A stretch of DNA of 38,578 nt from assembly GCA_022843645.1 (NCBI GenBank), contig JALHNF010000001.1, forward strand, positions 1 through 38,578. Direction: 5' to 3'. Positions 9,095 to 36,429 of the stretch are shown piece by piece. Made by a program: the position numbers and the translations under genes. This stretch comes from Minisyncoccota bacterium. GTDB taxonomy: Bacteria; Patescibacteriota; Minisyncoccia; Phycocordibacterales; UBA5272. The notes beneath the pieces are model-generated. The model searched no databases. It saw only the letters and a program-made list of their open reading frames with translations, and was not told the origin of the DNA. Every line of letters starts with the position of its first letter. Position 1 is the stretch's first letter.

Positions 9095-9122
9095 TTGACT
9101 ATCTATACATGTGTGCTACTGT
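9095..9122 (+). promoter_or_regulatory. sigma70-type promoter TTGACT-16-TACTGT
   Basis: TTGACT 9095-9100, 16-nt spacer, TACTGT 9117-9122. Followed by a ~35-40 nt leader and AAGGAGG at 9156-9162. Confidence 0.45.
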
Positions 9123-9167
9123 GAGAATAGAAGAGCTCTTTACTTCGACAGGCAAAAGGAGGTCTGT

Positions 9168-9767
9168 GTGGAAATTTCCATCGTTCTTAGCACGTTGGCT
9201 GGGCTAGGATTTTGTCTAGCTTATCTGGAATATAATCGCGTTGTCATCACAGGAAAAACGAAGCCTAACGGCGCGGCTTGGGCAATCTGGTCGGCAATTG
9301 CCGTGGTAAGTACAGGAAGTTACATCGCGGTATCTGAAGACTTCTGGAAAAGCTTGCTTCCTATCTTGAACATCATGCTGTGCATTGGGACATTTGTCCT
9401 GGCGCTCATCGCAGGCAAGTTCAAGAGGCTCGACGTTACAGATTGGATTGCTCTTGGCATAGGTCTCACCGCGGTGGTTGTTTGGGGAGCCTATAAATCT
9501 GCCACATATGCAAACCTGATCGTCCAAGTTGCCATCGCGGTTGGATTTATCCCCATCTGGCGAGCGGTGTGGAAGAATCCGTCATGTGAACATTCTCGCC
9601 CTTGGTTGATTTGGGTTGTGTCCTACTTGGTGTCTCTTATTGTAGTCACGCTGAGATGGAAGGGTCAATGGATTGACCTTGTCTATCCAATCAACTGCGT
9701 CTTGCTCCATGCCTCAGTACCTATTTTGTGCTCACTAAGAGCAAAAGCAAGGATTGAAGTGACATAA
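9168..9767 (+). CDS. hypothetical 6-TM membrane protein (higher G+C, SD-led)
   Basis: GTG 9168 lies 5 nt after AAGGAGG (9156-9162). Hydrophobic throughout. A sampled line (9241-9300) is 53% G+C. The track start GTG 9111 adds a non-hydrophobic Cys-rich extension and lacks an RBS. Confidence 0.6.
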   Translation: MEISIVLSTLAGLGFCLAYLEYNRVVITGKTKPNGAAWAIWSAIAVVSTGSYIAVSEDFWKSLLPILNIMLCIGTFVLALIAGKFKRLDVTDWIALGIGLTAVVVWGAYKSATYANLIVQVAIAVGFIPIWRAVWKNPSCEHSRPWLIWVVSYLVSLIVVTLRWKGQWIDLVYPINCVLLHASVPILCSLRAKARIEVT

Positions 9768-9768
9768 T

Positions 9769-9818
9769 AACCCACTACTCGGACAGAAACCCTCTGCTTC
9801 GGTGGTGGGTTTTCTGTT
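9769..9818 (+). terminator. probable intrinsic terminator
   Basis: AACCCACTACT (9769-9779) pairs with GGTGGTGGGTT (9801-9811) including two G-U pairs. An inner CAGA/TCTG helix is present, followed by TTTTCTGTT. Confidence 0.45.
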
Positions 9819-9850
9819 GCATTTTCATTTAACAAAATGAGGAAATATTG

Positions 9851-9856
9851 TATTAT
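9851..9856 (+). promoter_or_regulatory. -10 box TATTAT 6 nt upstream of ATG 9863 (leaderless-type)
   Basis: TATTAT at 9851-9856, a 6-nt gap, then ATG. No SD. Confidence 0.4.
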
Positions 9857-9862
9857 TTAAGC

Positions 9863-10663
9863 ATGCTTAATTTTCTTAAAACTCTTGGACTCTTAGCAAT
9901 TGGACTTCTTGTCATTGCAATCATTGCATGGTTTGTCTTTCCTGCTTCTCAAAAAGCAGTTGATAGCATTGCAAACACAGATGTGGCGCCGAAGCGTACG
10001 CTCGGAGAAATATTTGTGCGGGATTTTTTAGGAATTCCAAAATGTGGCATTCTTGGCGGCGGGTGTGACGCTCGAAATACAGATCCTTCTTCTGAGACGC
10101 AAATATTTTCTAATCCAGATATAAAAACCGTTGAGCCATATTCAGGGAGTACAGTAAAAAATCAGATGCTCATAGAGGGTGTGGCGCGAGCATCTTGGTT
10201 TAGCCAAGGTGTTGCGCCTGGAGAAGTTCGCAATGAACGAGGGGAAAAAGTTGGTGCGTTCATAATCAAGAAGGCTACTTCCACTATTCCTACACCTTCA
10301 AACTCATTTGTGTCATACACCGGCACTTTGCAATATGGAGATCCTGACACAAAAACAGGATATATTATTTTTAAACGTGGAACTGGAACTACAACCAACG
10401 CTACTTTGTCAGTACCGGTGCGATTTTATGAAACAAACACAAATTCGCAATCGTTTCTTACACCACCCCCTGTTGCATCAGAATGTCGAAAAACCGGATG
10501 TAGTGGGCAGATTTGTGCAGACCAGGAAATCATGACGACATGTGAGTTTCGCACGGAATACGCATGTTACCAAAACGCAAAATGTGAACGTCAGCCAAAT
10601 GGCACATGTGGATTCACTCCGACAAGTGAGCTCACAGGCTGTCTTGCAGGTACATCTAATTAA
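9863..10663 (+). CDS. secreted/anchored protein with Gmad2-like Ig domain and C-terminal eight-cysteine cluster
   Basis: N-terminal anchor LKTLGLLAIGLLVIAIIAWFV. IEGVARASWFSQGVAPGEVRNERGEKVG resembles the Gmad2 pattern. The C-terminal 60 aa contain exactly 8 Cys (CRKTGCSGQIC...TTCEF...ACYQNAKCERQPNGTCGF...GCL). Confidence 0.65.
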   Translation: MLNFLKTLGLLAIGLLVIAIIAWFVFPASQKAVDSIANTDVAPKRTLGEIFVRDFLGIPKCGILGGGCDARNTDPSSETQIFSNPDIKTVEPYSGSTVKNQMLIEGVARASWFSQGVAPGEVRNERGEKVGAFIIKKATSTIPTPSNSFVSYTGTLQYGDPDTKTGYIIFKRGTGTTTNATLSVPVRFYETNTNSQSFLTPPPVASECRKTGCSGQICADQEIMTTCEFRTEYACYQNAKCERQPNGTCGFTPTSELTGCLAGTSN

Positions 10664-10668
10664 GCGCG

Positions 10669-11706
10669 ATGTCTATGTATAAAGTCGCAGGTCTTATCCT
10701 TGCCTTTTTACTATTATGTATTTTCTTTCTATATCAAGAGTATCAACCCAAAACAGTTTTTCCTAATCAAGAATTCCAAGAAAGGATCGCAATCCCAGAG
10801 AAGAAAGACGTTATGGATATTCTCATATTTGGCGACGTCATGCTAGATAGGGCGGTGCGTGAATATATACATCAAAATACAACGCAATCTTTATTTAAAA
10901 ATGTCTCCTCAGAAATAGACAAAGCAGATATCACGCTTATTAATTTAGAGGGCCCAATCACAAAGAATCATTCTGTTGTTACAAAAACAAACTTTCAGTT
11001 TACGTTTGCTACTCATACGGCACAGGATCTTTCAGACATCGGTATAGATGTGGTGAGTCTCTCCAACAACCATGCGCATAATTTCGGTAGACAAGGACTT
11101 CTTGAGACAAAAGAATACCTCACTAATGCCGGTGTAGCTTTTTTTGGCGATCCATATAATAAAGCTGGTACAACATATACGCACACAAAAGGTAAAACAA
11201 ATGTTTCGTTTATTGGTTTCCACCAATTCGAGGCGTACGATATCAGTGTTTTGCTAGAAGAAATACGAGAACTCAAAAAACAAAATCATTTTATTGTTTT
11301 TTATCCACATTGGGGGGAGGAATACAAACTGAAAGCAAATGCCACACAAGAAGGCATTGCTAAGGAAGTACTCGCGGCAGGTGTGGATATTGTGATAGGT
11401 GCCCATCCGCACGTCATACAAAATGTTTCGTTATTACAAAACAAATTAGCATTTTACTCGCTTGGCAATTTCATTTTTGATCAGTGGTTCTCGAAAGATG
11501 TTCAGTACGGACTCGCCCTTAAACTGTCGCTTGAAAATAATGTTCTAAACAAAGTTGAGCTTAAGCCGTTTTTCAGAGAAAGGTTTGAGCCTGTATTTTT
11601 GAGCGGTGAAGAAAAAGATACATGGTGTGAAGCATACCTAAAAGTATCTCTCATGGCGCCAAATACCCAGTCTCCTTGTATAATTGAAATGAATCGAAAT
11701 GAATAA
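10669..11706 (+). CDS. CapA/PGA_cap family metallophosphatase-like protein
   Basis: ILIFGDVMLDR, LINLEGPIT, VVSLSNNHAHNFG, HWGEEY, GVDIVIGAHPHVIQ and YSLGNFIFDQ, in the family-typical order. N-terminal TM segment. Confidence 0.8.
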   Translation: MSMYKVAGLILAFLLLCIFFLYQEYQPKTVFPNQEFQERIAIPEKKDVMDILIFGDVMLDRAVREYIHQNTTQSLFKNVSSEIDKADITLINLEGPITKNHSVVTKTNFQFTFATHTAQDLSDIGIDVVSLSNNHAHNFGRQGLLETKEYLTNAGVAFFGDPYNKAGTTYTHTKGKTNVSFIGFHQFEAYDISVLLEEIRELKKQNHFIVFYPHWGEEYKLKANATQEGIAKEVLAAGVDIVIGAHPHVIQNVSLLQNKLAFYSLGNFIFDQWFSKDVQYGLALKLSLENNVLNKVELKPFFRERFEPVFLSGEEKDTWCEAYLKVSLMAPNTQSPCIIEMNRNE

Positions 11707-13081
11707 AACAGAATTACTCTTAAAACGCGTACGCACACTGCGGGATTTGCCATACAAAGAAGGTGGTATTGTATACTATTGTGTTCGGGACCAGAGAGTT
11801 GACCAGAATGCAGCTCTTTTGTTTGCTCAATCATTAGCAATTAAACATAAAACAACTCTCTCTGTCCTTTTTGTCCTTTATCCTGATTATCTTGGTGCCT
11901 GTGAGCGTCAATATGATTTTATGTTTCGTGGACTAGCAGAAATGGAGGAGTCGCTACGAAAACACAACATTCCTCTGGTAGTTCGTTTTGGTAAAGACGA
12001 GGAAGAACTTAACGCGTACATTAAGAAAGAACATGCCGGCGCTCTTGTCACTGATTTTTCGCCACTCAAAAGAAACAGGGAATGGAAAGACGTATGGGCA
12101 CGCGCCGCAGCAATACCTGTTTTTGAAGTGGACGCACGGAATATTGTCCCTGTTTGGATTGCTAGCAGCAAGCAAGAATACGGAGCGTATACATTACGGC
12201 CTAAACTGCAAAAACTAATTCCTGAGTATCTCCATCTGTTTCCGACAATAAAAAAAATGGAAGACTCAAACCTCGCGACACATAAACCAAACAATTGGGA
12301 GAAGATCGCTAAACATTTTACATACAAAAAAGAGCCTGCAAAAGTTGATTGGGTAACTCCGGGCGAAAAAGCTGGCTATAAGACGCTTGAGACATTTATC
12401 TCATCTCGCCTTCACGGCTATGCGTCAAAAAGAAACGATCCAAATGAAAGTGCACAATCAAACCTATCCCCATACATTACTTTTGGACAAATTTCACGTC
12501 ATAAAGTTGCGATTCTTGTACAAGAGTCCGGCGCACCGAAAGAAGACAAGGAGGCATTTCTAGAAGAACTCATTGTGCGTTCGGAGCTTGCGGAAAACTT
12601 TTGTTTTTACAATCCACACTATGACTCAGTACGCTCGTTTCCTGATTGGGCGCAAAAAACGTTAACGGCACATAAAGACGATGTGAGAGAGCATGTCTAC
12701 ACATTGTCACAATTTGAGCGTGCTCAAACACACGATGAACTGTGGAACGCTGCTCAGGAAGAGCTTCTACAGACTGGCAAAATGCATGGCTATATGAGAA
12801 TGTACTGGGCAAAAAAGATTCTTGAGTGGACAAAAAGTCCCGAAGACGCAATGAAAATAGCTATTTATCTCAATGACACATACGAACTTGATGGACGTGA
12901 GCCAAACGGCTATGCGGGTATTGCGTGGAGTATTGGTGGCGTACACGATCGAGCGTGGTTTCCTCGGCCTGTCTTTGGTACTATTCGTTTTATGAGTGTA
13001 GGTGGCGCTAGAACTAAATTCAATGTGGCAGAATATATAAAAAAGTGGACAGATAAAGAATATGAACAAAAAAGAAAATAA
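11699..13081 (+). CDS. phr: deoxyribodipyrimidine photolyase, class II type
   Basis: C-terminal FAD-binding region GKMHGYMRMYWAKKILEW...DGREPNGYAGIAWSIGGVHDRAW is typical of class II CPD photolyases. The N-terminal alpha/beta domain is present. Confidence 0.8.
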   Translation: MNKTELLLKRVRTLRDLPYKEGGIVYYCVRDQRVDQNAALLFAQSLAIKHKTTLSVLFVLYPDYLGACERQYDFMFRGLAEMEESLRKHNIPLVVRFGKDEEELNAYIKKEHAGALVTDFSPLKRNREWKDVWARAAAIPVFEVDARNIVPVWIASSKQEYGAYTLRPKLQKLIPEYLHLFPTIKKMEDSNLATHKPNNWEKIAKHFTYKKEPAKVDWVTPGEKAGYKTLETFISSRLHGYASKRNDPNESAQSNLSPYITFGQISRHKVAILVQESGAPKEDKEAFLEELIVRSELAENFCFYNPHYDSVRSFPDWAQKTLTAHKDDVREHVYTLSQFERAQTHDELWNAAQEELLQTGKMHGYMRMYWAKKILEWTKSPEDAMKIAIYLNDTYELDGREPNGYAGIAWSIGGVHDRAWFPRPVFGTIRFMSVGGARTKFNVAEYIKKWTDKEYEQKRK

Positions 13082-13844: not shown

Positions 13845-13850
13845 CTATAT

Positions 13851-14459: not shown

Positions 14460-14473
14460 TAGACACTTCTATT

Positions 14474-16383: not shown

Positions 16384-16947
16384 CTATTTCTTAATCGCGC
16401 CCAACTCTTTTTTAAGCTCAGAAAGCAATATTTCGATTTTCGCAATTCTTTCTTGCTGCTCACTGTCTATCTTTTGTTCACGGGCGATTTCTGAGTCTGT
16501 ACTTTCTTCAAGCTCTGCCACGTCTTCTTGAATTTCCTCTACGTCCGCGCTAATTTCCTGAACATTCTTTTCAATGCCTTCTACGTCAACGCTAATCTCT
16601 TCAATGTCTTCCGAAATTTCCTCGACATCTTTTTGCATTTCTTCTACGTCTTCTCCAATATCTTCAACCTCCTCTTGAATATCTTCAAGCTCTCCTTCTA
16701 CAGCTTCAAGTTGGGCCGTATTTCTGTTGATAGACATTTGAATAAAAAGCGCTAAGTAAATAGCCTCAAGTGAAACCGCTGTTGTCAGAATGAGAAGTGC
16801 TTTTTCAAGTGGAAAACCGAAAAGAGGAAGCGAAAGTACTGCTGCAAAAACTATTGTATGCAAAATTAGAGAAAGCGGTGAGCCAATCCAAAGAGTTGCC
16901 CGTTCGGCAAAAGAATCTATCTTTCTCGACATCTTTTTCTCTTTCAT
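16384..16947 (-). CDS. DUF1003-like membrane protein with acidic heptad-repeat tail
   Basis: The N-terminal half (FAERATLWIGSPLSLILHTIVFAAV...AVSLEAIYLALFIQMSINR) resembles the DUF1003 two-TM core. The C-terminal half is E/D-rich heptads. Confidence 0.65.
   Translation of the reverse strand: MKEKKMSRKIDSFAERATLWIGSPLSLILHTIVFAAVLSLPLFGFPLEKALLILTTAVSLEAIYLALFIQMSINRNTAQLEAVEGELEDIQEEVEDIGEDVEEMQKDVEEISEDIEEISVDVEGIEKNVQEISADVEEIQEDVAELEESTDSEIAREQKIDSEQQERIAKIEILLSELKKELGAIKK
16498..16707 (-). repeat. about 10 tandem 21-bp (7-aa) coding repeats, consensus E-E-I-x-x-D-V
   Basis: EDIQEEV EDIGEDV EEMQKDV EEISEDI EEISVDV EGIEKNV QEISADV EEIQEDV flanked by degenerate units. A recurring ctacgtc...aat(a/t)tc periodicity is visible in the DNA. 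Confidence 0.8.
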
Positions 16948-16963: not shown

Positions 16964-16974
16964 TGGTCTCCTCA

Positions 16975-17016
16975 TAAAAAATGAGAGGGCTCTGCATGTC
17001 ATACATGCAGAGCCCT
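16975..17016 (-). terminator. strong intrinsic terminator for the minus-strand gene 17025-17330
   Basis: Perfect 13-bp stem AGGGCTCTGCATG / CATGCAGAGCCCT (16986-16998 / 17004-17016) with a 5-nt loop. On the minus strand it is followed by CTCATTTTTTAT. Confidence 0.85.
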
Positions 17017-17024
17017 TGGTTGCT

Positions 17025-17330
17025 TCACGTGTTCCACCAGCTTGTTGAAGAGAGTGTCGTGGGTTTTGTGCTTTCTTGCGGCGACTTTCGAGCACCTTCC
17101 TGGCGCTCTGCTGCAAGTTTGTCGGCGGCTGCTTTGGCCGGAAGCTGCTCAACTGCACACTGACGTTCGCGGACAATAACGAGGACATCAACACCTTTCG
17201 CCTTAGCTGCTTTCTTGAGCTCAGTGCGTCGGGCCGCTTGATTTTCGCGCTTGCGGAAACTGGCCCGTGCCTGGCCTCGGTGCGGCCTACGACGCCGAGC
17301 AGGATCGTAGGCGTTTTGGAATTGATTCAT
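17025..17330 (-). CDS. small, highly basic, low-complexity orphan protein (high G+C)
   Basis: The ATG is preceded by AAGGAGG (17335-17341) with a 4-nt gap. The gene has its own promoter and terminator. 101 aa rich in R/K/A (PARRRRPHRGQARASFRKRENQAARRTELKKAAKAKG). Sampled lines are 62-67% G+C. Confidence 0.6.
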   Translation of the reverse strand: MNQFQNAYDPARRRRPHRGQARASFRKRENQAARRTELKKAAKAKGVDVLVIVRERQCAVEQLPAKAAADKLAAERQEGARKSPQESTKPTTLSSTSWWNT

Positions 17331-17350
17331 TGAACCTCCTTTTGGTTTTA

Positions 17351-17376
17351 TTAGTTAAGCGACATTGCTCAACTAA
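17351..17376. promoter_or_regulatory. 26-bp near-perfect palindrome (operator or leader hairpin)
   Basis: TTAGTTAAGC-gacatt-GCTCAACTAA has 10-nt arms complementary at 9/10 positions. The tenth position pairs as G-U in the minus-strand RNA. It lies between the -10 box and the SD of the small basic protein gene. Confidence 0.5.
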
Positions 17377-17384
17377 CATTGTGC

Positions 17385-17413
17385 AAGATAACAATACATT
17401 CAGATATAGTCAA
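17385..17413 (-). promoter_or_regulatory. sigma70-type promoter TTGACT-17-TATCTT
   Basis: The minus strand reads TTGACTatatctgaatgtattgtTATCTT. It would give a ~45-nt leader to ATG 17330. Confidence 0.5.
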
Positions 17414-17433
17414 CTTTGAGTGTTGCATATCTT

Positions 17434-17442: not shown

Positions 17443-17449
17443 ATTTTAT

Positions 17450-20400
17450 ATGGCTCGTGCGCAAAAAACACAAAACATAAAGAAAATATCTCCTCTTAAA
17501 AAAAGTGATGTAAAAAAAGCACCGATGATCACCACCTATGATCCAAAGAAGATAGAGTCAGCGATTCAGAAAAAGTGGGAGAAAGAAAAACCATTTAAAG
17601 CGTTTTCAAGTGCAAAGACAAAAAAGAAGCCATTTTATGCACTTTCGATGATTCCATACCCCTCTGGCACAGGGCTCCACATTGGCCATCCACGAAGCTA
17701 CACCGCAACCGACATTGTCGCTCGACAAAAGCGTATGGAGGGCTTCAATGTTTTAAATCCCATGGGATATGACGCGTTTGGGCTTCCGGCAGAGCAGTTT
17801 GCGATACAAAACAAAGTTCATCCTAAGAAGGCCGTTGCTATGAACGTAGCAACATTCGAACGCCAACTCAAAAAGCTTGGTTTATCTTTCGATTGGGATA
17901 GAAAAATAAATACCACTGACCCTGAGTACTACAAATGGACACAGTGGATATTTTTGAAGCTATATAACTCCTACTACGACACCAAAAAACAAAAAGCCAC
18001 TTCAATAGAATCTCTCATTTCAATATTTGAAAAAAGGGGCAATAAAGATGTTTCTGCATACGCAAGTGGGGAAGTACAGGAATTTTCAAAACAAGAATGG
18101 CTTCAAATGACTCCTCTGCAGAAACAAGAAACATTAATGCGCTACCGTCTTGCGTATGAAGGAATTGCAGAGGTGAACTGGTGCGAAGAGCTTGGCACCG
18201 TGCTCGCAAACGATGAAGTGGTTGATGGAAAAGACGGTCCTGTATCTGAGCGCGGCGGCTATCCAGTTACAAAAAAGAATATTCGCCAATGGTTTTTGCG
18301 TATTACCGCATATGCTGACAGACTTTTGTCTGGATTAAATGAAATAGAGTGGCCAGAACACATTAAAGAAATAGAGAAAAATTGGATTGGGAGAAGTGAA
18401 GGCGCAGAGATATCGTTTAAGCTTGACATCCCAGGCCAGTCTGAAAACAAGCATTCCGTAAAAGTTTTTACTACACGGGCAGATACACTATTTGGAGTGA
18501 CATTCATTGCCATATCTCCTGAGCTTGCACAAAGTTGGATTGATGCAGGATGGAGTCCTGATGTAAGTGTTGCTAGATATACCAAACAAACAATACAAGA
18601 ACATCAAAAAGCCACCTTTGACGCCACACAAAAGAAAACAGGTGTATATACGGGCGTCTACGCAAAGCATCCAGGCACAGGAGAAAATATTCCGGTATGG
18701 GTCACAAATTATGTATTGCCAGGATATGGCACGGGAGCCATTATGGGTGTACCTGCACACGATGAGCGAGATTTCGAATTCGCAAAAGAATACGGTCTGC
18801 CAATAAAAAATGTCATTGACCCTGTATATATACGGCCAGACGTGATTGCGCGCACTGACTTTACTAAAAAACACAAAGTGGTGAGCTTAGTCGAGGCTCC
18901 AGATGGGAAAATACTAACAATGAATTGGGGTCCAAAGCTCGGAGGCAGGCTTCTTCTTGGAGGAACTATTGAAAAAGGCGAAACACCTGAGCAAACCGCG
19001 CTGCGAGAGCTCAAAGAAGAAACAGGGTATGTACATGGAGACATTGTCTCAGTGAGTGAAGAAACATTTGACTACAAATACTTTGCAACATCGAAGAACG
19101 TGGCATATCAGGCGCTCACCCGCTTTGTCCACATCAAACTTCGTGATCTTGAAAAAGAAGAGGCTTCGCTTGAAGAAAATGAGAAGGGTTTATTTAAAGT
19201 GGAATGGGTAAGTAAGGAGCATGCGAAAAAAGAAATTGTCGAGGTTCTTCATTTGTACGCTCTTGATCTATATGCATTTCAAACTCCATTTTGTGGCGAG
19301 GGTGTTATTGCCCGCTCAGGTGAGTTCTCGGGGCTTTCATCATTAGATGCTCGGAAAGTAATTGCAGAAGCCGTGGGTGGCACACTCGTCACTCGGTACA
19401 AAATGCGAGACGCTATTTTTGCTCGACAAAGATACTGGGGAGAACCTGTGCCACTCTACAAGGACGCGCAAGCCATCATTCATGAAGTGAAAAAGTTGCC
19501 ACTTACACTTCCAAATACCGCCTCGTATGAACCAACTGGTACAGGCGAGGGTCCGCTTGCAAATATCCCTGCTTGGAAAAAAGGTGGGTATGAAACAAAT
19601 ACAATGCCAGGATGGGCAGGCTCAAGCTGGTACTATCTGCGGTACATGGATGCGGCGAATAAGAAAAAGTTCGCAGACGAAAAAGAAATTCGTTATTGGA
19701 AACATGTCGACATATATCTCGGGGGAGGAGAACATGCCACAGGGCACCTTCTCTATGCAAGGTTTTGGCATAAGTTTCTCAAAGATTACGGGCTTGTGCA
19801 TACTGAAGAGCCGTTCAAAAAATTTGTTGCTCACGGCATGATCCTTGCAAGTGATGGTAGAAAAATGAGTAAGCGGTGGGGAAACGTAGTCAATCCTGAT
19901 GACGTGATAAATATCTACGGCGCAGACACAGCACGTCTCTATATTGCCTTCATGGGTCCATACACAGAAGCTATACCGTGGTCCGAAGAGAGTATCGTTG
20001 GGTCTCGCCGTTTCATTGAACGCCTTTATAAAAAAGGACTCAGAGTGAATGCAGAAAATACTACAAAGACGGATCTAAGCGCCCTCAAGGCGATACACAA
20101 ACTTATTCAAAAAGTTTCACTTGATATTGCATCATGTAGCTTTAACACTGCTGTTGCCAAAGCCATGGAAACAATGAATATCCTCGAGTCTGCATCGATA
20201 AGCAAAAAAGACTTCTCAGTTTTTCTACAAGTACTGTACCCTTTTGTGCCTCATGTGACCGAGTACCTGTGGTCACAGTGGAACAAAGAGCCTATTCACA
20301 CATCAAAATGGCCTCGTGCGGACAAAAAATACACGAGAGAAGAGAATGTCACTATTGGCGTTCAAATAAACGGAAAGTTGCGAGGCAATATCACTATTCC

Positions 20401-20536
20401 GTTTAATTCGAGTGAAGATAGTGCCAAAAAACACGCCCTAGAAGAAGAAAATGTGCGTAAATATATCGAGGGAAAGACTATTTTGAAGGTTATTTACGTA
20501 CAAAATAGGATTGTAAACATCGTTATAAAGCCTTAA
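17450..20536 (+). CDS. leuS: leucine--tRNA ligase with an embedded Nudix-hydrolase-like domain
   Basis: HIGH (GLHIGHPRSY) and KMSKS-type (RKMSKRWGN) motifs. CP1 editing motifs TTRADTLFGV and GTGAIMGVPAHDERDFEFA, plus RQRYWGEPVP. The Bacteroidetes-like insertion LYNSYYDTKK...RYRLAY is present. Start uncertain: ATG 17450 (promoter geometry), ATG 17525 (canonical MITTYDPKKIE N-terminus) or the track GTG 17420. Confidence 0.9.
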   Translation: MARAQKTQNIKKISPLKKSDVKKAPMITTYDPKKIESAIQKKWEKEKPFKAFSSAKTKKKPFYALSMIPYPSGTGLHIGHPRSYTATDIVARQKRMEGFNVLNPMGYDAFGLPAEQFAIQNKVHPKKAVAMNVATFERQLKKLGLSFDWDRKINTTDPEYYKWTQWIFLKLYNSYYDTKKQKATSIESLISIFEKRGNKDVSAYASGEVQEFSKQEWLQMTPLQKQETLMRYRLAYEGIAEVNWCEELGTVLANDEVVDGKDGPVSERGGYPVTKKNIRQWFLRITAYADRLLSGLNEIEWPEHIKEIEKNWIGRSEGAEISFKLDIPGQSENKHSVKVFTTRADTLFGVTFIAISPELAQSWIDAGWSPDVSVARYTKQTIQEHQKATFDATQKKTGVYTGVYAKHPGTGENIPVWVTNYVLPGYGTGAIMGVPAHDERDFEFAKEYGLPIKNVIDPVYIRPDVIARTDFTKKHKVVSLVEAPDGKILTMNWGPKLGGRLLLGGTIEKGETPEQTALRELKEETGYVHGDIVSVSEETFDYKYFATSKNVAYQALTRFVHIKLRDLEKEEASLEENEKGLFKVEWVSKEHAKKEIVEVLHLYALDLYAFQTPFCGEGVIARSGEFSGLSSLDARKVIAEAVGGTLVTRYKMRDAIFARQRYWGEPVPLYKDAQAIIHEVKKLPLTLPNTASYEPTGTGEGPLANIPAWKKGGYETNTMPGWAGSSWYYLRYMDAANKKKFADEKEIRYWKHVDIYLGGGEHATGHLLYARFWHKFLKDYGLVHTEEPFKKFVAHGMILASDGRKMSKRWGNVVNPDDVINIYGADTARLYIAFMGPYTEAIPWSEESIVGSRRFIERLYKKGLRVNAENTTKTDLSALKAIHKLIQKVSLDIASCSFNTAVAKAMETMNILESASISKKDFSVFLQVLYPFVPHVTEYLWSQWNKEPIHTSKWPRADKKYTREENVTIGVQINGKLRGNITIPFNSSEDSAKKHALEEENVRKYIEGKTILKVIYVQNRIVNIVIKP

Positions 20537-24512: not shown

Positions 24513-25592
24513 ATGACGAACTCTCAAAAAACAGTTTTTCTTGGTATGTCAGGCGGGGTGGACTCCTCGGTCTCTTTGCTTTTACTCAAAAAAGCTGGGT
24601 ACAATGTTGTGGGAGTGTTTATAAAAGTATGGCAGCCTGAAGGATTTCCCTGTACTTCAAAAGAAGACCGTCTCGACGCGATGCGCGTTGCTGCGCAATT
24701 TAATATTCCATTTCTTACGCTTGATTTAGAAAAAGAGTACAAAAAAGGTGTTATTGATTACATGTTTTCTGAATATAAGAAAGGTAATACCCCAAATCCT
24801 GACGTCATGTGCAATCGTGAAGTGAAGTTTGGTGCATTTTTGAACTTTGCACGCACGCACGGTGCAGATTTTGTTGCCACAGGGCACTACGCGCAGGTTC
24901 TCCACTCCGAACATGAGTCAAAGGTACTCACAAGCAAAGATATTGAGAAAGATCAAACATACTTTTTGTGGACATTAGAGCAAAAACAGATACAGTCCAT
25001 TTTGTTTCCAATTGGTCATCTTAAGAAAAGTGAGGTACGAGAAATCGCCCGCAAAACAAACATATACACCGCACCAAAAAAAGACAGTCAGGGGTTATGT
25101 TTCGTGGGAAATGTTTCTTTCAAAGATTTACTCAAGCAAGAGCTGAAGCCGCTCCCTGGGGACGTATTAAATGAAAAAGGTGATGTGATTGGGGTTCATA
25201 ACGGCGCAATCCTCTACACAAAAGGTGAGCGACATGGATTTACTATCACAAAAAAGAGTCCTCATGATGAGAAGCTTTTCATAGTTGATCGCGATATACA
25301 AAAAAATACAGTCACTGTCTCACAAGATACCCCTGAAAATAGTAGCCGTTTGCTAGATGAATATGTCACACTGACAGATCACTCCTTCACACGAGAGGCT
25401 TTCTCAGTGGGTAAAAATGTATTGGCACGATTTCGATATCGAGCAGAACTTTTTCCCTGCACTGTCTCAAGTGTGAATGCAGAGACACTCACCCTCAAAG
25501 TAAGCACGCCTGTTTCAGTAACAAAAGGCCAGTCTGCGGCGCTGTACGATACGGCTAGCACAGAATTACTCGGAGGAGGTATAATAATGTAA
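24513..25592 (+). CDS. mnmA: tRNA-specific 2-thiouridylase
   Basis: PP-loop VFLGMSGGVDSSVS, plus NPDVMCNREVKFGAF and DQTYFLW. ATG 24513 (MTNSQK) is preferred to the track GTG 24504. Confidence 0.9.
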   Translation: MTNSQKTVFLGMSGGVDSSVSLLLLKKAGYNVVGVFIKVWQPEGFPCTSKEDRLDAMRVAAQFNIPFLTLDLEKEYKKGVIDYMFSEYKKGNTPNPDVMCNREVKFGAFLNFARTHGADFVATGHYAQVLHSEHESKVLTSKDIEKDQTYFLWTLEQKQIQSILFPIGHLKKSEVREIARKTNIYTAPKKDSQGLCFVGNVSFKDLLKQELKPLPGDVLNEKGDVIGVHNGAILYTKGERHGFTITKKSPHDEKLFIVDRDIQKNTVTVSQDTPENSSRLLDEYVTLTDHSFTREAFSVGKNVLARFRYRAELFPCTVSSVNAETLTLKVSTPVSVTKGQSAALYDTASTELLGGGIIM

Positions 25593-26504: not shown

Positions 26505-26526
26505 ACACACCCTCATTTGTTGCCAG

Positions 26527-26778
26527 ATGGGAGTCGACTTCACATTCATTTATTGGTATTACCACACCTTCGTTGGTGTTCCGCCCTTTGGTTTTGATGG
26601 CATCGACATCAAAAGCTTTGCCATGGCGGCTCTCAGAAAAAGAACACTGCCGGAAGTGTCACGGACAGAATTAAAGAGAATACTCGAGATTCCTGATTAT
26701 GGATTCTCTCATGACCCACTCGAAGATGCTGAAATGCAAGCCGCTCTTTTCTTCGGGCTTCTTCACAAGGTAGGCTGA
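26527..26778 (+). CDS. C-terminal fragment of a DEDD 3'-5' exonuclease (possible gene remnant)
   Basis: Only the Exo III-like end is present (FSHDPLEDAEMQAALFFGL), preceded by a DFTFIYWYYHTF...PFGF segment. No DxE Exo I motif exists, and there is no room for one upstream because the EamA-like gene ends at 26504. Confidence 0.4.
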   Translation: MGVDFTFIYWYYHTFVGVPPFGFDGIDIKSFAMAALRKRTLPEVSRTELKRILEIPDYGFSHDPLEDAEMQAALFFGLLHKVG

Positions 26779-26799
26779 CATGTCTTACCTTCATACACC

Positions 26800-26828
26800 C
26801 CTCGCGCTCACTTGGGCGCGAGGTTTTT
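26800..26828 (+). terminator. intrinsic terminator
   Basis: CCTCGCGC / GCGCGAGG 8-bp GC-rich stem, 8-nt loop, then TTTTT. Confidence 0.8.
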
Positions 26829-26852
26829 ATTGTTTTCGATTATGAAATAAAT

Positions 26853-28802: not shown

Positions 28803-28836
28803 AAAGACGTTCTTTCGGGGGGTCACGATAGTGTAC

Positions 28837-28865
28837 TTGACAAGACTGCTCTTATTGTGTATAGT
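28837..28865 (+). promoter_or_regulatory. near-consensus sigma70 promoter TTGACA-17-TATAGT
   Basis: TTGACA 28837-28842, a 17-nt spacer, TATAGT 28860-28865. Followed by a ~37-nt leader and AGAGGAGG at 28897-28904. Confidence 0.65.
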
Positions 28866-28908
28866 ATAGATGGTTGATCATTTTGAATTGCCCCAAAGAG
28901 GAGGTATT

Positions 28909-29298
28909 ATGCTCCGATTAAGAGTAACAGTATCTCTACAGTGTCCTCACTGTAGAGAGTCGATTAACGCCCACTCCCCGAACTGCCCAGCTCATGATCT
29001 TCAGAAGCTTGTCGAGAAGCGCATGGCATCCACTGGACTATGCCCGGTATGCAAGAAAGAGTCGGCATCTGTTGAATTAAATGCCGGTGACTTTTACGAG
29101 TGTCGTAAATGTCATACGCAATTCTCAACAGCCGAAAGCGGCTCAGCCGAGGAAGACTGGACATGGTTAACAATCAACGGCGAGTTCATTATCGTCATCG
29201 TGCTCAAGGATAAAGGCAAGGGAGACTTTCCTCTTGACAAGCTCTTTGAGGAAGCGCGGCAGAGACTAAAGAAGAAAAGAAAGCAAGCACCTACCTGA
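28909..29298 (+). CDS. orphan zinc-ribbon protein with basic C-terminal tail
   Basis: ATG 28909 lies 4 nt after AGAGGAGG. CPHC-x10-CPAH plus CPVC-x17-CRKC. The tail is RQRLKKKRKQ. A sampled line is 52% G+C. The track start 28870 lacks an RBS. Confidence 0.6.
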   Translation: MLRLRVTVSLQCPHCRESINAHSPNCPAHDLQKLVEKRMASTGLCPVCKKESASVELNAGDFYECRKCHTQFSTAESGSAEEDWTWLTINGEFIIVIVLKDKGKGDFPLDKLFEEARQRLKKKRKQAPT

Positions 29299-29355
29299 AC
29301 TGTGAAAACTTGTGACGATTAGTCCGGTTTTTGCTTAAATAGGTCGTAAAACAAG

Positions 29356-29378
29356 AAGAGCCTGACCAGCTCTTTTTT
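29356..29378 (+). terminator. intrinsic terminator
   Basis: AAGAGC / GCTCTT stem, 7-nt loop, T-run. Confidence 0.55.
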
Positions 29379-29402
29379 CATTATTTATTTTTGAGAATAC
29401 GG

Positions 29403-31674: not shown

Positions 31675-31731
31675 TATATCTGCGTGATTGTTATTTTGTA
31701 GATGTGCTATATACTACTCTCTATATATACT

Positions 31732-31947: not shown

Positions 31948-32003
31948 AATCCTTGCGTTAAACAAAAAAATATCGTATTATACATAACCATATTGCCGTT
32001 ATC

Positions 32004-32126: not shown

Positions 32127-32154
32127 ATAAAGGGTATATAAATTATTAAAACAC

Positions 32155-32535: not shown

Positions 32536-32564
32536 TCTTGAATTCATAACTACTTACAATAACT

Positions 32565-32999: not shown

Positions 33000-33014
33000 T
33001 CCTTCTATAATTGT

Positions 33015-33614: not shown

Positions 33615-33690
33615 AAGTGGATAAACTGTTTGCATTTTGTCAAGCGGTACTGTATAATTTATAAATTCTAGTCTGTTCGAGCGTATATTT

Positions 33691-34626
33691 ATGTCACATT
33701 CAATACTTTTACCTTCCAAACCAAAAATAGTTTCGGAAGATGCGTTTTCTGGCGTTTATGAGATAGACGGCCTTTACCCTGGGTATGGTCATACATTAGG
33801 TAACTCATTACGAAGAATCATTCTTTCGTCGTTGCCTGGTGTTGCCATCACATCAGTTAAAATTGATGGCGTTGACCATGAGTTCTCAACAATTCCTGGA
33901 ATTAAGGAAGATGTTATTACTATTCTCTTGAACCTAAAGCGCATCCGATTTGCCATGGCAAGTGATGAGCCTCAAGTGGTGACAATCGATGTAAAAGGTG
34001 AACGTATTGTTACCGCAAAAGATATCGATGTGGGAGGACAAGTGGAGATAACCACAAAAGATCAATACATCTGCGAACTTACACAAAAGAGCACTGTTTT
34101 TTCAGTCGAAATGACACTCGAAAAAGATCTCGGATACGTTTCTAAAGAAAATCTTCGAAAAGAAAAAACCCCGATCGGAACCATTGCTCTTGATGCCTCA
34201 TTTACACCTATCAGACGAGTAAGCTACGAAGTCGAAAATATGCGCGTTGGCGACAGAACAGACCACAACAGACTTCGCCTCATCATCGAAACAGATGGCA
34301 CTATCAGTCCACGAAAAGCCCTCGAGACTTCTATCGAGACAATGATCACACAGTTACAGTCAATTGTTGGATTTCGAGAAAGTTTATCCGCTCAAGCAAA
34401 TGAGGTCGAAGTCAAAGAAGACGTAGATCTGACTAAGATAAAAATTGAAGATCTAGACATTTCAAAACGATCTCAAAACGCACTCCTAGAAGTGGGTATA
34501 AAATCGGTCGCAGGACTCGCTCGAAAGTCATCTCAAGACCTGTTAGAAATTGACGGTATTGCAGAAAAGGGTGTTGAGGAAATTCGTGAAGCACTTGTAA
34601 AGTTTGGTGTCACGTTAAAAGATTAA
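33691..34626 (+). CDS. rpoA: DNA-directed RNA polymerase subunit alpha
   Basis: GYGHTLGNSLRRILLSS-type motif (GHTLGNSLRRIILSSLPG). C-terminal domain with IEDLDISKRSQNALLEVGIKSVAGL. Confidence 0.95.
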   Translation: MSHSILLPSKPKIVSEDAFSGVYEIDGLYPGYGHTLGNSLRRIILSSLPGVAITSVKIDGVDHEFSTIPGIKEDVITILLNLKRIRFAMASDEPQVVTIDVKGERIVTAKDIDVGGQVEITTKDQYICELTQKSTVFSVEMTLEKDLGYVSKENLRKEKTPIGTIALDASFTPIRRVSYEVENMRVGDRTDHNRLRLIIETDGTISPRKALETSIETMITQLQSIVGFRESLSAQANEVEVKEDVDLTKIKIEDLDISKRSQNALLEVGIKSVAGLARKSSQDLLEIDGIAEKGVEEIREALVKFGVTLKD

Positions 34627-34634
34627 ATTAAGGT

Positions 34635-34991
34635 ATGAATCATCATAAATCAGCTAGAAAGTTTGGTCGAGAGAAAAATGCGCGTACTGCACTCATGCGG
34701 AGTCTTGTACTTGCTTTGATTGACAAAGAAAGTATCACCACAACAGAAGCAAAGGCAAAAGAACTTCGACCAAGAATAGAAAAACTCGTTACGAAAGCAA
34801 AAGAGTCAACACTTGCAAACAAGCGAGTTGTATTAAGCCGGCTCTACAACAATACAAAAGCAATGCGAAAACTCTTTGGAGACATCTCTCCTCGTTTTGA
34901 GGGGGTAAGCGGTGGTTACACAAGAATCGTGAAGCTCGGGGCGCGCAAAGGTGACGCAAGTAAGATGGCAGTAATCGAATTTACCAAGTAG
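34635..34991 (+). CDS. rplQ: 50S ribosomal protein L17
   Basis: KFGREKNARTALMRSLVLALIDKESITTTEAKAKELRP..EKLVTKAK and GGYTRIVKLGARKGD. Confidence 0.95.
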   Translation: MNHHKSARKFGREKNARTALMRSLVLALIDKESITTTEAKAKELRPRIEKLVTKAKESTLANKRVVLSRLYNNTKAMRKLFGDISPRFEGVSGGYTRIVKLGARKGDASKMAVIEFTK

Positions 34992-34992
34992 T

Positions 34993-35337
34993 ATGAAATA
35001 CACAATCGACGCAACAAACCAATCTCTTGGAAGAATCGCCACACAGGTAGCTTCTATCTTGAATGGTAAAAATACTGTTACATTTGCAAAAAATAAAACT
35101 CCGAATAGTATCGTAGAAGTGACCAACGCTTCAAAGCTTAAAGTAACAGGTAAAAAAATGGATGTTTCTGTTCATAAAAAGTACTCTGGATATCCAGGAG
35201 GTCTTGTGGAAGAAAAGCTTTCTCATGTAGTGTCTAAAAAAGGCTACAGCGAGCTTATTCGCCATGCTGTTGAGGGAATGCTTCCTAAAAACAAGCTCCA
35301 GAAAATTCGCATGAAGCAATTAACAATTTCTGAATAA
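34993..35337 (+). CDS. rplM: 50S ribosomal protein L13 (short form)
   Basis: IDATNQSLGRIATQVASILNGK, KYSGYPGG, AVEGMLPKNKL. It is 114 aa. Confidence 0.85.
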   Translation: MKYTIDATNQSLGRIATQVASILNGKNTVTFAKNKTPNSIVEVTNASKLKVTGKKMDVSVHKKYSGYPGGLVEEKLSHVVSKKGYSELIRHAVEGMLPKNKLQKIRMKQLTISE

Positions 35338-35342
35338 GTGGT

Positions 35343-35741
35343 ATGACGACAAAAAAATACATTGAATCAGTAGGACGAAGAAAGACAGCCATTGCGCGAG
35401 TACGAATATCGGAAGCAGCAAAGAGAGTAATCACGGTCAACGACAAAGAGCTTTCTGTATATTTCCCAACAAAAGAGCTTCAAATGATTGTACTCTCACC
35501 ACTCGAAGCAGGAGAGCTTGTACACACATACTCGGCATCTGTAAAAGTTCTTGGTGGAGGCATTCACGCACAAGCAGAAGCAGTGCGACACGGCCTTGCA
35601 CGTTCACTTGTAAAAAGTGAGCCAGCAATCAAGGACGCCCTCAAAAAACTCGACTTACTCAAGCGTGACCCTCGAGCGGTAGAACGAAAGAAATTCGGTC
35701 TCAAAAAAGCTCGTAAAGGTCCGACGTGGTCTAAGCGATAG
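35343..35741 (+). CDS. rpsI: 30S ribosomal protein S9
   Basis: VGRRKTAIARVRI, GGGIHAQAEAVRHGLARSL, LLKRDPRAVERKKFGLKKARKGPTWSKR. Confidence 0.95.
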   Translation: MTTKKYIESVGRRKTAIARVRISEAAKRVITVNDKELSVYFPTKELQMIVLSPLEAGELVHTYSASVKVLGGGIHAQAEAVRHGLARSLVKSEPAIKDALKKLDLLKRDPRAVERKKFGLKKARKGPTWSKR

Positions 35742-35753
35742 GAAAAACATTAT

Positions 35754-35786
35754 AAAAAAAACCGTGGAATCCTCCATGGTTTTTTT
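35754..35786 (+). terminator. intrinsic terminator after rpsI
   Basis: ACCGTGGA / TCCATGGT stem (one G-U pair), 4-nt loop, flanked by an A-run and TTTTTT. Confidence 0.7.
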
Positions 35787-35792
35787 ATAAGA

Positions 35793-35817
35793 AAGAACCC
35801 GAACAACGGGTTCTTTT
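35793..35817. terminator. second hairpin, probable terminator of the convergent minus-strand gene
   Basis: AAGAACCCG / CGGGTTCTT perfect 9-bp stem with a 5-nt loop. It lies 10 nt beyond the stop of 35828-36349 (-). Confidence 0.6.
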
Positions 35818-35827
35818 GGGGTGACAG

Positions 35828-36349
35828 TTATTGTCTCGGAAGGCGGGGGACAAGTTTTTCTAGTCCTTGTATGTCTTGAAAAATTAAGGATGCTAAATAT
35901 TTCCAGGACAAAGCATTTCGAGAAAAGGAACGCAGAGAGTACGTGTTTACATGGATGTTATTCTCAGGGTCTCCGTCCCATTCAAAATATCCAGGCCTAA
36001 ACGCTACATTTCCGAAACAGAAGAATACCATATCTTCGTACCGGTACGCTGGTCCAATTGACCCAGGGCTCGAGGAATCTATCTTGACTACAAAAGCAAC
36101 TTCGATGTCTCTTCCTGGTAATCCCCTAACATCATCTGTTTCTACTTCCTTCTGTTCACAAATGAAACGTTCAACCCCAGGAATAATCCTGCCGAACTCT
36201 TCGTCAGTAGGTAACACTACCTTTATCCTCTGAGAGAGCTCACCAAAATGTCTCAGCCAAGACTGTAACCTCTGAAAACCTTGCGCTGAGATGGGTTTGG
36301 TTTTTTTCGGAGCTATAGGAACATCTCTATCAATACTTTTTCTTGGCAC
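35828..36349 (-). CDS. orphan hypothetical protein (SD-led, own promoter)
   Basis: GTG 36349 is preceded by AAGGAG (36358-36363) with an 8-nt gap. 173-aa soluble ORF with no motif recognised. It is the only minus-strand gene between the r-protein cluster and grpE. Confidence 0.55.
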   Translation of the reverse strand: MPRKSIDRDVPIAPKKTKPISAQGFQRLQSWLRHFGELSQRIKVVLPTDEEFGRIIPGVERFICEQKEVETDDVRGLPGRDIEVAFVVKIDSSSPGSIGPAYRYEDMVFFCFGNVAFRPGYFEWDGDPENNIHVNTYSLRSFSRNALSWKYLASLIFQDIQGLEKLVPRLPRQ

Positions 36350-36400
36350 AGCACGATCTCCTTACGCTCATAAAACAACGGTTAACGAACAACTGATGTG

Positions 36401-36429
36401 ATACTACTTAAAGCACGAGTCACTGTCAA
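36401..36429 (-). promoter_or_regulatory. sigma70-type promoter TTGACA-17-TAGTAT
   Basis: The minus strand reads TTGACAgtgactcgtgctttaagTAGTAT, giving a ~45-nt leader to GTG 36349. Confidence 0.55.

Follow-up and report, generated by a model that had tools for sequence, protein, structure and literature searches.

Shine-Dalgarno-led single-gene cassettes, probably acquired horizontally, in a Patescibacteria lineage whose 16S rRNA appears to lack the anti-Shine-Dalgarno motif

Results

We have identified four single-gene units in a 38,578-nt window (the whole stretch of DNA analysed) of genome G000, a 52-contig, 90%-complete MAG of a streamlined, Parcubacteria-type Patescibacteria, which was compared with three congeners (G001, G002 and G003). 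Each unit is predicted to run from a sigma-70-type promoter through a leader, a canonical Shine-Dalgarno (SD) box and an ORF to an intrinsic terminator. All four units were read directly in the sequence, and a consensus scan also listed the promoters of inserts 2 to 4. Insert 1 (9095..9825, plus strand) is a self-contained cassette that begins with a -35 box TTGACT (9095-9100) and, at a spacing of 16, a -10 box TACTGT (9117-9122). Its SD box AAGGAGG (9156-9162) lies 5 nt ahead of the GTG start at 9168 of g1 (9168-9767), which encodes a 199-aa, 7-TM protein with a modelled SWEET/PQ-loop/KDEL-receptor fold, and the gene is followed by a terminator hairpin at 9769-9811 (-23.8 kcal/mol, z -5.1) and a U-rich tail. 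Insert 2 (16964..17429, minus strand) carries TTGACT (17413-17408), TATCTT with an upstream TG (17390-17385), the SD box AAGGAGG (17341-17335) 4 nt before an ATG at 17330, the Arg/Lys/Ala-rich, 101-aa g2 (17330-17025) and a terminator at 17016-16986 followed by U6 (-26.0 kcal/mol, z -6.2). Insert 3 (28805..29390, plus strand) has TTGACA (28837-28842), TATAGT (28860-28865), AGGAGG (28899-28904) 4 nt before an ATG at 28909, g3 (28909-29298; 129 aa with a CxxC...CxxC zinc ribbon) and a weak terminator at 29353-29377 (-9.0 kcal/mol, z -1.8). Insert 4 (35742..36440, minus strand) has TTGACA (36429-36424), TAGTAT (36406-36401), AAGGAG (36363-36358) 8 nt before a GTG at 36349, g4 (36349-35828; 173 aa) and a terminator at 35816-35792 (-14.5 kcal/mol, z -4.6); beside it, an additional bidirectional hairpin (35755-35786) closes the rpsI operon.

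An earlier note on this DNA had counted exactly four strong SD genes in the window. This count was essentially right, as the remaining AGGAGG or AAGGAG matches with a start codon are internal in-frame starts or antisense ORFs; one borderline case, at 25592, has its box 11 nt upstream, within the preceding gene. The description of all four promoters as canonical two-box elements holds for g2 (9/12 matches to consensus plus the extended TG), g3 (11/12) and g4 (10/12), but is generous for g1, whose TTGACT-16-TACTGT scores 8/12, matches only 3/6 in the -10 box and falls under the scan cut-off. From the end of the -10 box to the start codon the distance is 43-54 nt across the four genes, which gives leaders of about 36-47 nt (~35-45 nt in the earlier note). 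A hairpin terminator for each gene, likewise proposed, is clear in g1, g2 and g4 (z -4.6 to -6.2) and weak in g3. Gene finders gave g3 and g4 other start codons, so that SD-led starts in such genomes are a warning for these programs.

Core genes of G000 have a GC of 0.432 +/- 0.027, a GC3 of 0.384 +/- 0.043 and a codon score of 0.197 +/- 0.054. Whole-gene GC and GC3, respectively, are 0.480 and 0.52 for g1, 0.569 (99th percentile) and 0.51 for g2, 0.482 and 0.51 for g3, and 0.429 and 0.37 for g4. The GC3 of g1-g3 lies at about the 95th percentile among the genome's genes. Despite its ordinary GC and GC3, g4 has an aberrant codon score (0.01), and when ranked against core segments of matching length, g1, g3 and g4 score in the bottom 0.6% or less. 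Thus, g1-g3 are atypical in GC3, and g1, g3 and g4 in codon score. The raised G+C that had been claimed is borne out at third codon positions in g1-g3 (0.51-0.52 versus 0.38), but g4 is not GC-rich at all, and the hand-counted values of 60-nt lines exaggerate the contrast at gene level (whole-gene GC 0.429-0.569 versus 0.432 for the core).

The AF2 model of g1 (pLDDT 90.9) identifies it as a membrane protein of the SWEET/PQ-loop/KDEL-receptor fold. It has seven helices in the 3+1+3 arrangement of the SWEET/PQ-loop superfamily, and a Foldseek search matched it to KDEL receptors (TM 0.54-0.59, probability 1.00) and also to SWEET and PnuC. The likeness to SWEET, PQ-loop, KDEL-receptor and PnuC transporters lies in the seven helices and the fold match, whereas sequence identity to solved SWEET/KDEL-receptor/PnuC-type structures is only ~10%. 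In a profile search, E. coli SemiSWEET 4x5m was matched only weakly (E = 0.077), and no Pfam family, including the MtN3/PQ-loop HMMs, matched at E <= 0.01. The g1 family comprises 1094 representative clusters in a representative library of 1.8 billion proteins, with a best match of 56% identity. Identity is 45% to a protein of G405, a genome from another family, 40% to one of a 'Saccharibacteria' MAG, and at most 31% inside its own family. In the tree, g1 groups with metagenome proteins, apart from native-looking copies in the family genomes G011 and G009. Its closer relatives have TTGACA-N17 promoters, leaders and AAAGGAGGTG-type boxes as in the g1 cassette, and their GC3 (0.54-0.62) exceeds that of their own flanks. 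Strong SD boxes are kept by g1-family cassettes in three genomes of this anti-SD-less order (G000, G038 and G405).

The other three genes had each only themselves as a match among 5.8 billion proteins, and no donor or close homologue was found for them there, in IMG/VR or in GenBank phages. The orphan status that had been given to all four genes is thus correct for g2, g3 and g4 and not for g1. In Pfam, g3 had only sub-threshold zinc-ribbon matches, and the single-sequence AF2 model of g4 (pLDDT 33) was unusable. The inserts had no phage or plasmid-like hallmarks and no significant PHROG, IMG/VR or phage matches; no integrase, target duplication, repeat or terminal inverted repeat marks them, each occurs only once in the genome, and neither a repeat nor a 3' element is common to them or links them to other parts of it. 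Exact insert boundaries could not be fixed because the congener spacers are too diverged. For g2, g3 and g4, it is synteny and composition that suggest a foreign status.

The window is collinear with all three congeners, from which g1-g4 are missing, and the matching junctions measure only 25-68 nt. The gap is 25 nt in G001 at insert 1, ~51 nt in G001 at insert 2 (beside the DUF948-like gene 16384-16947, divergent from leuS), ~68 nt in G001 and G002 at insert 3 (alaS to the next operon), where G003 carries a different insert, and 60 nt in G001 and G002 at insert 4 (rpsI-grpE). A search of 40 relatives, 21 of which represent other genera in this family, turned up no homologue of g2, g3 or g4, which makes gain more parsimonious than repeated loss. 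Several Logan assemblies, independent and built from different runs, place both g3 and g4 in the same surroundings. The four genes are, as had been suspected, lineage-specific insertions at otherwise conserved junctions, and the identities given to their neighbours were confirmed for the S11 carboxypeptidase (dac-operon), ychF, leuS, alaS, rpsI and grpE. ORF 16384-16947 has Pfam matches to DUF948 and DUF1003, both sub-threshold, and the product of 9863-10663, called Gmad2 before, had zero Pfam matches. G002 shares with G000 the gene at 8577-9092 and a photolyase gene (11699-13081), both of which are missing in G001 and G003.

A fifth lineage-specific insert (26505..26830, plus strand) has neither promoter nor SD box and ends in a terminator hairpin. 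Its 83-aa ORF (26527-26778) is absent from G001, G002 and G003 and had no Pfam match; by eye, its C-terminus looks like an exonuclease motif.

Start signals were compared genome-wide in G000 and its sister species G001 with a decoy-controlled SD test on conserved and non-conserved genes. Conserved genes carried SD boxes at chance level in both (G000: 15 seen, 15.5 expected, P = 0.58; G001: 17 seen, 16.7 expected, P = 0.51; neither significant), whereas non-conserved genes had 19 with 5.0 expected in G000 (P = 1.5e-6) and 27 with 4.2 expected in G001 (P = 1e-13). The SD-led accessory class therefore exceeds chance by about 14 genes in G000 and 23 in G001, the latter a 100%-complete assembly of 13 contigs, and the dichotomy seen in the window is no sampling artefact. 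Turnover is evident in this class, as G003 lacks 16 of the 28 accessory genes that are SD-led in G001, although core proteins of the two are 93% identical. GC3 is higher in SD-led than in other accessory genes (P = 2e-4 in G000, 2e-5 in G001). The promoter pattern TTGAC[AT]-N16-18-TANNNT occurs at 49 sites versus 13 for a reversed-box control; where it faces a gene start, 18/26 sites precede genes not conserved in G001 (18/24 with a second gene call), and promoters whose leader is 20 nt or longer are linked to non-conserved genes (Fisher P = 2.8e-6). These promoter and SD counts agree with the view that the cassettes carry expression signals unused by the conserved genes of G000. In contrast, the conserved gene downstream of insert 1 has a native leaderless-type start (9851..9865, plus strand), with the -10 box TATTAT 6 nt before its ATG at 9863. 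Genome-wide, TANNNT peaks at -12 from starts (68 versus a background of ~14), and 239 leaderless-type starts were seen versus 82 expected by chance. The start signal thus predicts core versus accessory in this lineage and is a cheap marker of recent gene gain in CPR genomes.

The 16S rRNA ends in a GGAUUAAUUCAA-like tail, without CCUCC, in 30 related genomes that sample the order widely. Two congeners and a member of another genus in their family have the tail GGAUUAAUUCAAU(G/U). CCUCC is absent from the readable tails of 27 further genomes of the order, each from a different family; one of these genomes is assembled as a single contig and has one 16S match. In G001, CCUCC is absent from the entire 16S. 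The 16S of G000 is not in the assembly and probably shares the CCUCC-less tail of its relatives. A search for uL1 (PF00687) found no match in the 90%-complete G000, and the control search found uL1 in 14/14 known genomes. Textbook SD boxes with optimal spacing pose a paradox in a lineage whose 16S rRNA appears to lack the anti-SD.

Discussion

We hypothesize, with a probability of roughly 0.6, that an SD-using gene pool supplied the four units, as self-contained single-gene cassettes gained recently, and we infer both their horizontal origin and their recency. The units would have entered short intergenic spacers of a compact Patescibacteria genome and would belong to an accessory class that spans the genome and the genus, with a source pool that is presumably SD-dependent and richer in G+C at third codon positions. 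The recipient lineage, for its part, would start conserved genes on leaderless or SD-less mRNAs. Because the core is leaderless or SD-less and the relatives' 16S lacks CCUCC, promoter, SD box and terminator are best seen as imported with the DNA and not as the native expression mode. Survival in a compact genome may be restricted to transcriptionally insulated, between-gene inserts, which would account for the complete promoter-to-terminator layout. The earlier note had spoken of foreign, moron-like insertions; lineage-specific placement, own signals and atypical composition favor this, but no donor could be named, mobile hallmarks are absent and 'moron' serves as an analogy only.

A useless relic SD box should decay, and conservation above the neutral rate counts against the boxes being imported relics. 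When G001 is compared with G003, identity is 79% at SD positions (54/68; P = 5e-4) and 75% in flanking leaders (398/532; P = 2e-13), in comparison with 59.7% at four-fold degenerate sites, and two pairs have a nearly identical leader with proteins only 47% identical. Near-identical leaders on diverged proteins suggest that these leaders are maintained or repeatedly exchanged and do not decay neutrally. It is accordingly possible, although we consider it rather doubtful, that the cassettes are a maintained functional class whose GGAGG leaders are recognised, beside a leaderless core, by a reader distinct from the 16S 3' tail, for which a protein factor, a different RNA or a ribosome in a specialised state would come into question. 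Such a class would fit the limitation of SD enrichment to accessory genes in two species, the conservation of leader and SD above the four-fold-site baseline, the pairs whose proteins are down to 36-47% identity (core 93%) while leaders are kept, the strong boxes kept by g1-family cassettes in three genomes, and the optimal SD spacing (4-8 nt) in 4/4 units. It is difficult to reconcile with the lack of CCUCC throughout the G001 16S and in all the tails read from the order and with the zero SD excess on conserved genes, and no candidate reader has been identified. Moreover, SD positions are not better conserved than the remaining leader (79% versus 75%, P = 0.46) in a small sample of 12 pairs, in which ~3 boxes lie inside coding sequence by our reading of the alignments, and these are comparable G001/G003 cassettes, g1-g4 themselves having no orthologue. 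The earlier note's own alternative, a distinct class with a different initiation route, is thus weakened in its classical SD form by the absence of CCUCC from every relative's 16S examined, and gains from leaders and SD boxes conserved above neutral. A tentative and broader idea, to which we give limited credence, is that anti-SD-less Patescibacteria keep a second initiation channel, in which a reader of GGAGG leaders would serve a mobile, fast-evolving cassette pool circulating among CPR genomes. If so, canonical SD boxes survive, conserved between species, where the ribosome cannot pair with them.

It is improbable that g1-g4 are ancestral genes, lost by deletion from the three congeneric species, with signals and a composition that are old features of fast-evolving genes. 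The comparison does comprise three congeners without a resolved branching order relative to G000, and loss does occur, as with the 8577-9092 and photolyase genes; however, four independent clean excisions to 25-68 nt spacers would be needed, homologues of g2, g3 and g4 occur in 0/40 relatives across family and order, GC3 and codon use are atypical, and the closest g1 relatives lie outside its own family. We give almost no weight to the idea that the inserts arose during assembly or binning, as chimeras with another organism's DNA. A MAG of 52 contigs, with several other SD-led, GC-rich genes near contig ends, could raise this suspicion, but every insert has syntenic native genes at both sides on one contig, g3 and g4 keep their context in Logan assemblies made separately from different runs, and the same gene class is found in the 13-contig, 100%-complete G001. 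Either the SD boxes are fossils by which horizontal transfer into Patescibacteria could be dated and traced, or some other component reads them.

Several known systems invite comparison with the cassettes. An integron gene cassette is a promoterless ORF with an attC site shared among cassettes, beside intI/attI; this identity was rejected, since the four units have their own promoters, share no repeat or 3' element and are scattered, not arrayed. A passenger borne by an IS or MITE did not fit either, as the units lack terminal inverted repeats and each occurs just once in the genome. Phage 'morons', a term associated with Hendrix and colleagues, are reportedly autonomous extra genes between conserved phage genes. 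Like them, the cassettes are single genes with their own promoter and terminator between genes that are adjacent in relatives, have atypical composition, and are present in one genome and missing from close kin. Unlike morons, they are set in a cellular chromosome among housekeeping genes (ychF/leuS, alaS, rpsI/grpE) and not in a prophage, had no matches in PHROG, IMG/VR and phage-GenBank searches, and occur in a recipient whose ribosome seemingly cannot pair with the SD box that they bring in. The GeneMarkS-2 'group C' of Lomsadze et al. in 2018 is said to contain bacteria in which first genes are leaderless and other genes are SD-led. G000 resembles this group in its -10 box fixed 6-7 nt before many starts, alongside some SD-led genes. 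In group C genomes, however, the SD serves ordinary internal or core genes and the anti-SD is present, whereas in G000 and G001 core genes have SD boxes at chance level, accessory genes alone are enriched in them, and relatives lack the anti-SD. A subgroup of Parcubacteria without the anti-SD motif and uL1 has already been published (Tsurumaki et al. 2022, RNA 28:1041, PMC9297842). With that subgroup, as portrayed in the parts of the paper considered here, our lineage shares the lack of CCUCC in relatives' 16S, the lack of a uL1 match and conserved genes without SD. Those parts report the rRNA loss and do not mention canonical SD boxes on accessory genes; set against them, our finding that such boxes persist on accessory genes despite anti-SD loss appears to be new.

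Four SD-led units and their junctions

The window holds four single-gene units, each led by a strong Shine-Dalgarno (SD) box: g1 (9168-9767, forward strand; GTG start, AAGGAGG, spacer 5 nt), g2 (17330-17025, reverse strand; ATG start, AAGGAGG, spacer 4 nt), g3 (28909-29298, forward strand; ATG start, AGGAGG, spacer 4 nt) and g4 (36349-35828, reverse strand; GTG start, AAGGAG, spacer 8 nt). Our reading of the sequence agrees with the earlier note that these units exist, and its count of exactly four strong-SD genes in the window is fair, the remaining AGGAGG or AAGGAG sites with a start codon being internal in-frame codons or antisense ORFs. Public gene calls put the start of g3 at ATG 28870 (142 aa), unlike the SD-supported start, and in some assemblies give g4 as 129 aa from an internal start, versus the SD-supported start at 36349.

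In all four units a TTGAC(A/T) -35 box is followed, after a gap of 16-17 nt, by a TANNNT box. The claim of canonical two-box promoters holds in a consensus scan for g3 (11/12), g4 (10/12) and g2 (9/12, with an extended TG), but is generous for g1, whose -10 box has just 3/6 consensus matches. Since the -10 boxes end 43-54 nt upstream of the start codons, the leaders are ~36-47 nt long, with transcription predicted to begin ~7 nt beyond each box. Terminator hairpins are strong after g1 (-23.8 kcal/mol), g2 (-26.0 kcal/mol) and g4 (-14.5 kcal/mol), with z-scores of -4.6 to -6.2, but weak after g3 (-9.0 kcal/mol).

Gene for gene, the window is collinear with contigs of three congeners (G001, G002 and G003), and all four units are missing at these loci in each of them. 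The empty junctions measure 25 nt in G001 between the carboxypeptidase and the next gene (g1), ~51 nt in G001 between the divergent 16384-16947 gene and leuS (g2), ~68 nt between alaS and the next operon (g3) and 60 nt between rpsI and grpE (g4). The flanking genes have kept their native leaderless-type promoters, in which a -10 box lies a few nt before the start codon, at the edges of the inserts. The insert spans (9095-9820, 16964-17429, 28805-29390 and 35742-36440) are approximate, as the congeners' spacers are too diverged for base-by-base alignment. Both g3 and g4 recur in the same context across several independent Logan assemblies, so a chimeric join can be ruled out. In G003 the alaS junction is occupied by another single-gene insert (contig C3, ~6540-7200, reverse strand; L034/L035), different from that of g3, which encodes a 124-aa multi-TM protein (GC3 0.38) behind a TTGACA promoter and a GGAG box. 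Insertion here has thus happened more than once, which makes the spacer a repeated landing place.

Other features of the window were noted as well. A 171-aa membrane ORF (8577-9092) and a photolyase-domain gene (11699-13081) are common to G002 and missing from G001 and G003, and gene loss or gain thus touches SD-less genes too. A fifth lineage-specific insert (26505-26830) lies amid conserved genes and has neither promoter nor SD; it consists of an 83-aa ORF followed by a strong hairpin, and the C-terminus of the ORF (FSHDPLEDAEMQ) resembles, by eye, the final motif of DnaQ-type exonucleases. This insert may be what is left of a decayed cassette. At positions 1-2400 the GC content falls to 0.28-0.31 in a block of five small ORFs, which have no SD boxes and are unmatched in the compared stretches of the three congeners; this is an accessory island whose compositional sign is opposite to that of the SD-led cassettes. 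In LeuRS (gene at 17447-20536) the editing domain is followed by a NUDIX domain (residues 481-594; Pfam E = 2.8e-13). Its gene probably begins at ATG 17447, which is preceded at 7 nt by TACACT, and not at GTG 17420.

Composition and genome-wide start signals

Whole-gene GC is 0.480 for g1, 0.569 for g2, 0.482 for g3 and 0.429 for g4, against a core mean of 0.432 +/- 0.027; the corresponding GC3 values are 0.52, 0.51, 0.51 and 0.37, against 0.384 +/- 0.043. The higher G+C that had been noticed is thus a property of g1, g2 and g3, which lie at about the 95th percentile for GC3, but not of g4. Codon usage divides the genes differently: the scores of g1, g3 and g4 fall within the lowest <=0.6% of length-matched core segments, and g2 is not among these.

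Genes were called throughout the window's genome and G001 with a home-made, simple codon-model finder. They were regarded as conserved when present in one congener, the complete genome G001, which was fetched whole, and internal in-frame start codons served as decoys for the SD. Strong SD boxes precede conserved genes at chance frequency, with 15 seen versus 15.5 expected in the window's genome and 17 versus 16.7 in G001. Before non-conserved genes there are 19 versus 5.0 expected (P = 1.5e-6) and 27 versus 4.2 expected (P = 1e-13), respectively. This restriction of the SD excess to non-conserved genes in both genomes means that the division into SD-led and SD-less genes is real and general, and that g1 to g4 are a local sample of a wider gene class. 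Within the accessory set, SD-led genes have a mean GC3 of 0.47 in the window's genome and 0.45 in G001, and other accessory genes are lower (P = 2e-4 and 2e-5). Promoters of the form TTGAC[AT]-N16-18-TANNNT number 49 versus 13 for a control pattern and, where followed by a leader, mostly stand ahead of non-conserved, SD-led genes. For leaderless-type starts, in which TANNNT lies 5-8 nt upstream of the start codon, the count is 239 versus 82 expected.

Products of the four genes

None of the four proteins has a significant match in Pfam, NCBIfam or PHROGs (PHROG cut-off E <= 0.001). The g2 product is rich in Arg, Lys and Ala, g3 encodes a clear CxxC...CxxC zinc ribbon, and the single-sequence AF2 model of g4 is unusable (pLDDT 33). 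All three found only themselves among 5.8 billion proteins, and no homologue among 40 relatives. The orphan status ascribed to the four genes thus applies to these three but fails for g1, whose family comprises 1094 representative clusters (best match 56% identical). An AF2 model of g1 built from 20 homologues has seven helices (pLDDT 90.9) and matches KDEL receptors (TM 0.54-0.59, probability 1.00), SWEET and PnuC, from which g1 is predicted to be, probably, a small-solute transporter of this fold.

A single-protein g1 scan of genome contigs gave one match. Homologues of g1 from its own genus and family do not exceed 31% identity to it; closer copies occur in the genome G405 (45%), which belongs to a different family of the order, and in a 'Saccharibacteria' MAG (40%). 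These two copies and a more distant one in G038, another genome of the order, have a TTGACA promoter, a leader and a AAAGGAGGTG-type box, and their GC3 (0.54-0.62) exceeds that of their flanks. In a tree of the family, g1 groups with metagenome proteins and the cassette-type copies form the next clade out; family-level relatives have native-looking copies with low GC3 and no SD, and these are placed well away from g1.

Origin of the units

On the simplest account, the four units were imported from a gene pool that uses SDs and is richer in GC3, and their promoters, SD boxes and terminators came along with the imported DNA. Import would explain why the junctions are empty in relatives and why the composition is atypical, as well as the limitation of SD boxes to accessory genes, the association of SD with GC3 inside the accessory set and the fast turnover of SD-led accessory genes, 16 of 28 of which in G001 are missing from G003 at a core protein identity of 93%.

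More specific vehicles were considered and rejected. No sequence is shared among the inserts or between them and other parts of the genome. BLASTN against the whole genome and G001, together with repeat scans, revealed neither common ends nor terminal inverted repeats, duplications or extra copies, which argues against a transposon, MITE or integron. A phage origin was likewise rejected: no significant match was obtained with PHROGs, a pattern scan of IMG/VR or tblastn against 50,697 phage records, with g2, g3 and g4 matching nothing in either IMG/VR or the phage records. The SD region of g2 matches the native G001 spacer at 13/15 positions; descent from that spacer was set aside, the match being a probable motif-level coincidence.

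One result, on leader conservation, clashes with a reading of the SD boxes as pure 'fossils'. Among 12 SD-led accessory genes common to G001 and G003, identity is 79% at SD positions, 75% in the surrounding leader and 59.7% at four-fold degenerate sites. In two pairs (G001 C9 4963-5628 and C10 16592-17047) the leader is almost unchanged and the proteins are just 47% identical, versus 93% for the core, a pattern of conserved 'head' and hypervariable body; the N-termini of these proteins are signal-peptide-like. We treat this as a warning and not as proof, because the sample is small, conservation of the SD does not exceed that of its own leader (P = 0.46) and about 3 of the 12 boxes, by eye, lie inside coding sequence. 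The 5' regions of the cassettes may be maintained or repeatedly replaced, through selection by a putative reader or through cassette exchange.

The 16S rRNA tail

The window's genome is a MAG of 567.6 kb in 52 contigs (90% complete, GC ~0.43), of which the window is contig C1, and its assembly yielded no 16S gene. The usual bacterial 16S tail reads GGAUCACCUCCUUU where the anti-SD (CCUCC) stands. In G001 and G003, the two congeners with a 16S gene, and in one other genus of the family, the 3' end is instead ...GGAAGCUGGUCGUGGAUUAAUUCAAU(G/U), in a register borne out by Rfam alignment. CCUCC occurs in 0 of 27 further readable tails from the rest of the order (27 different families, including one single-contig genome with a single 16S match). 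Classical SD:anti-SD pairing is therefore very unlikely in this lineage, consistent with the total lack of SD before core genes. An anti-SD hidden elsewhere was rejected, as CCTCC is absent from the entire G001 16S and from the sequence just downstream. The idea that a different SD has arisen to pair with the altered tail was also rejected: CATTGAATTAATC 5-mers show no specific enrichment at -20 to -3, where the enriched words are generic AT-rich ones only. Where a single-stranded anti-SD would stand, the order's tails have UUCAA-N(1-3)-UUGAA or similar, a self-complementary mini-hairpin extending into the spacer (seen in the G001 16S 3' end, L079 3040-3062, and in L077, L078 and L081-L107).

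Genome size (0.5-1.1 Mb in relatives), relatives and ribosome features place the window's genome within the Patescibacteria/CPR, and no gene for uL1 was detectable in it. Loss of the anti-SD is already published for a subgroup of Parcubacteria that is also without uL1 (Tsurumaki et al. 2022, PMC9297842), and the window's genome most likely belongs to this Parcubacteria-type subgroup.
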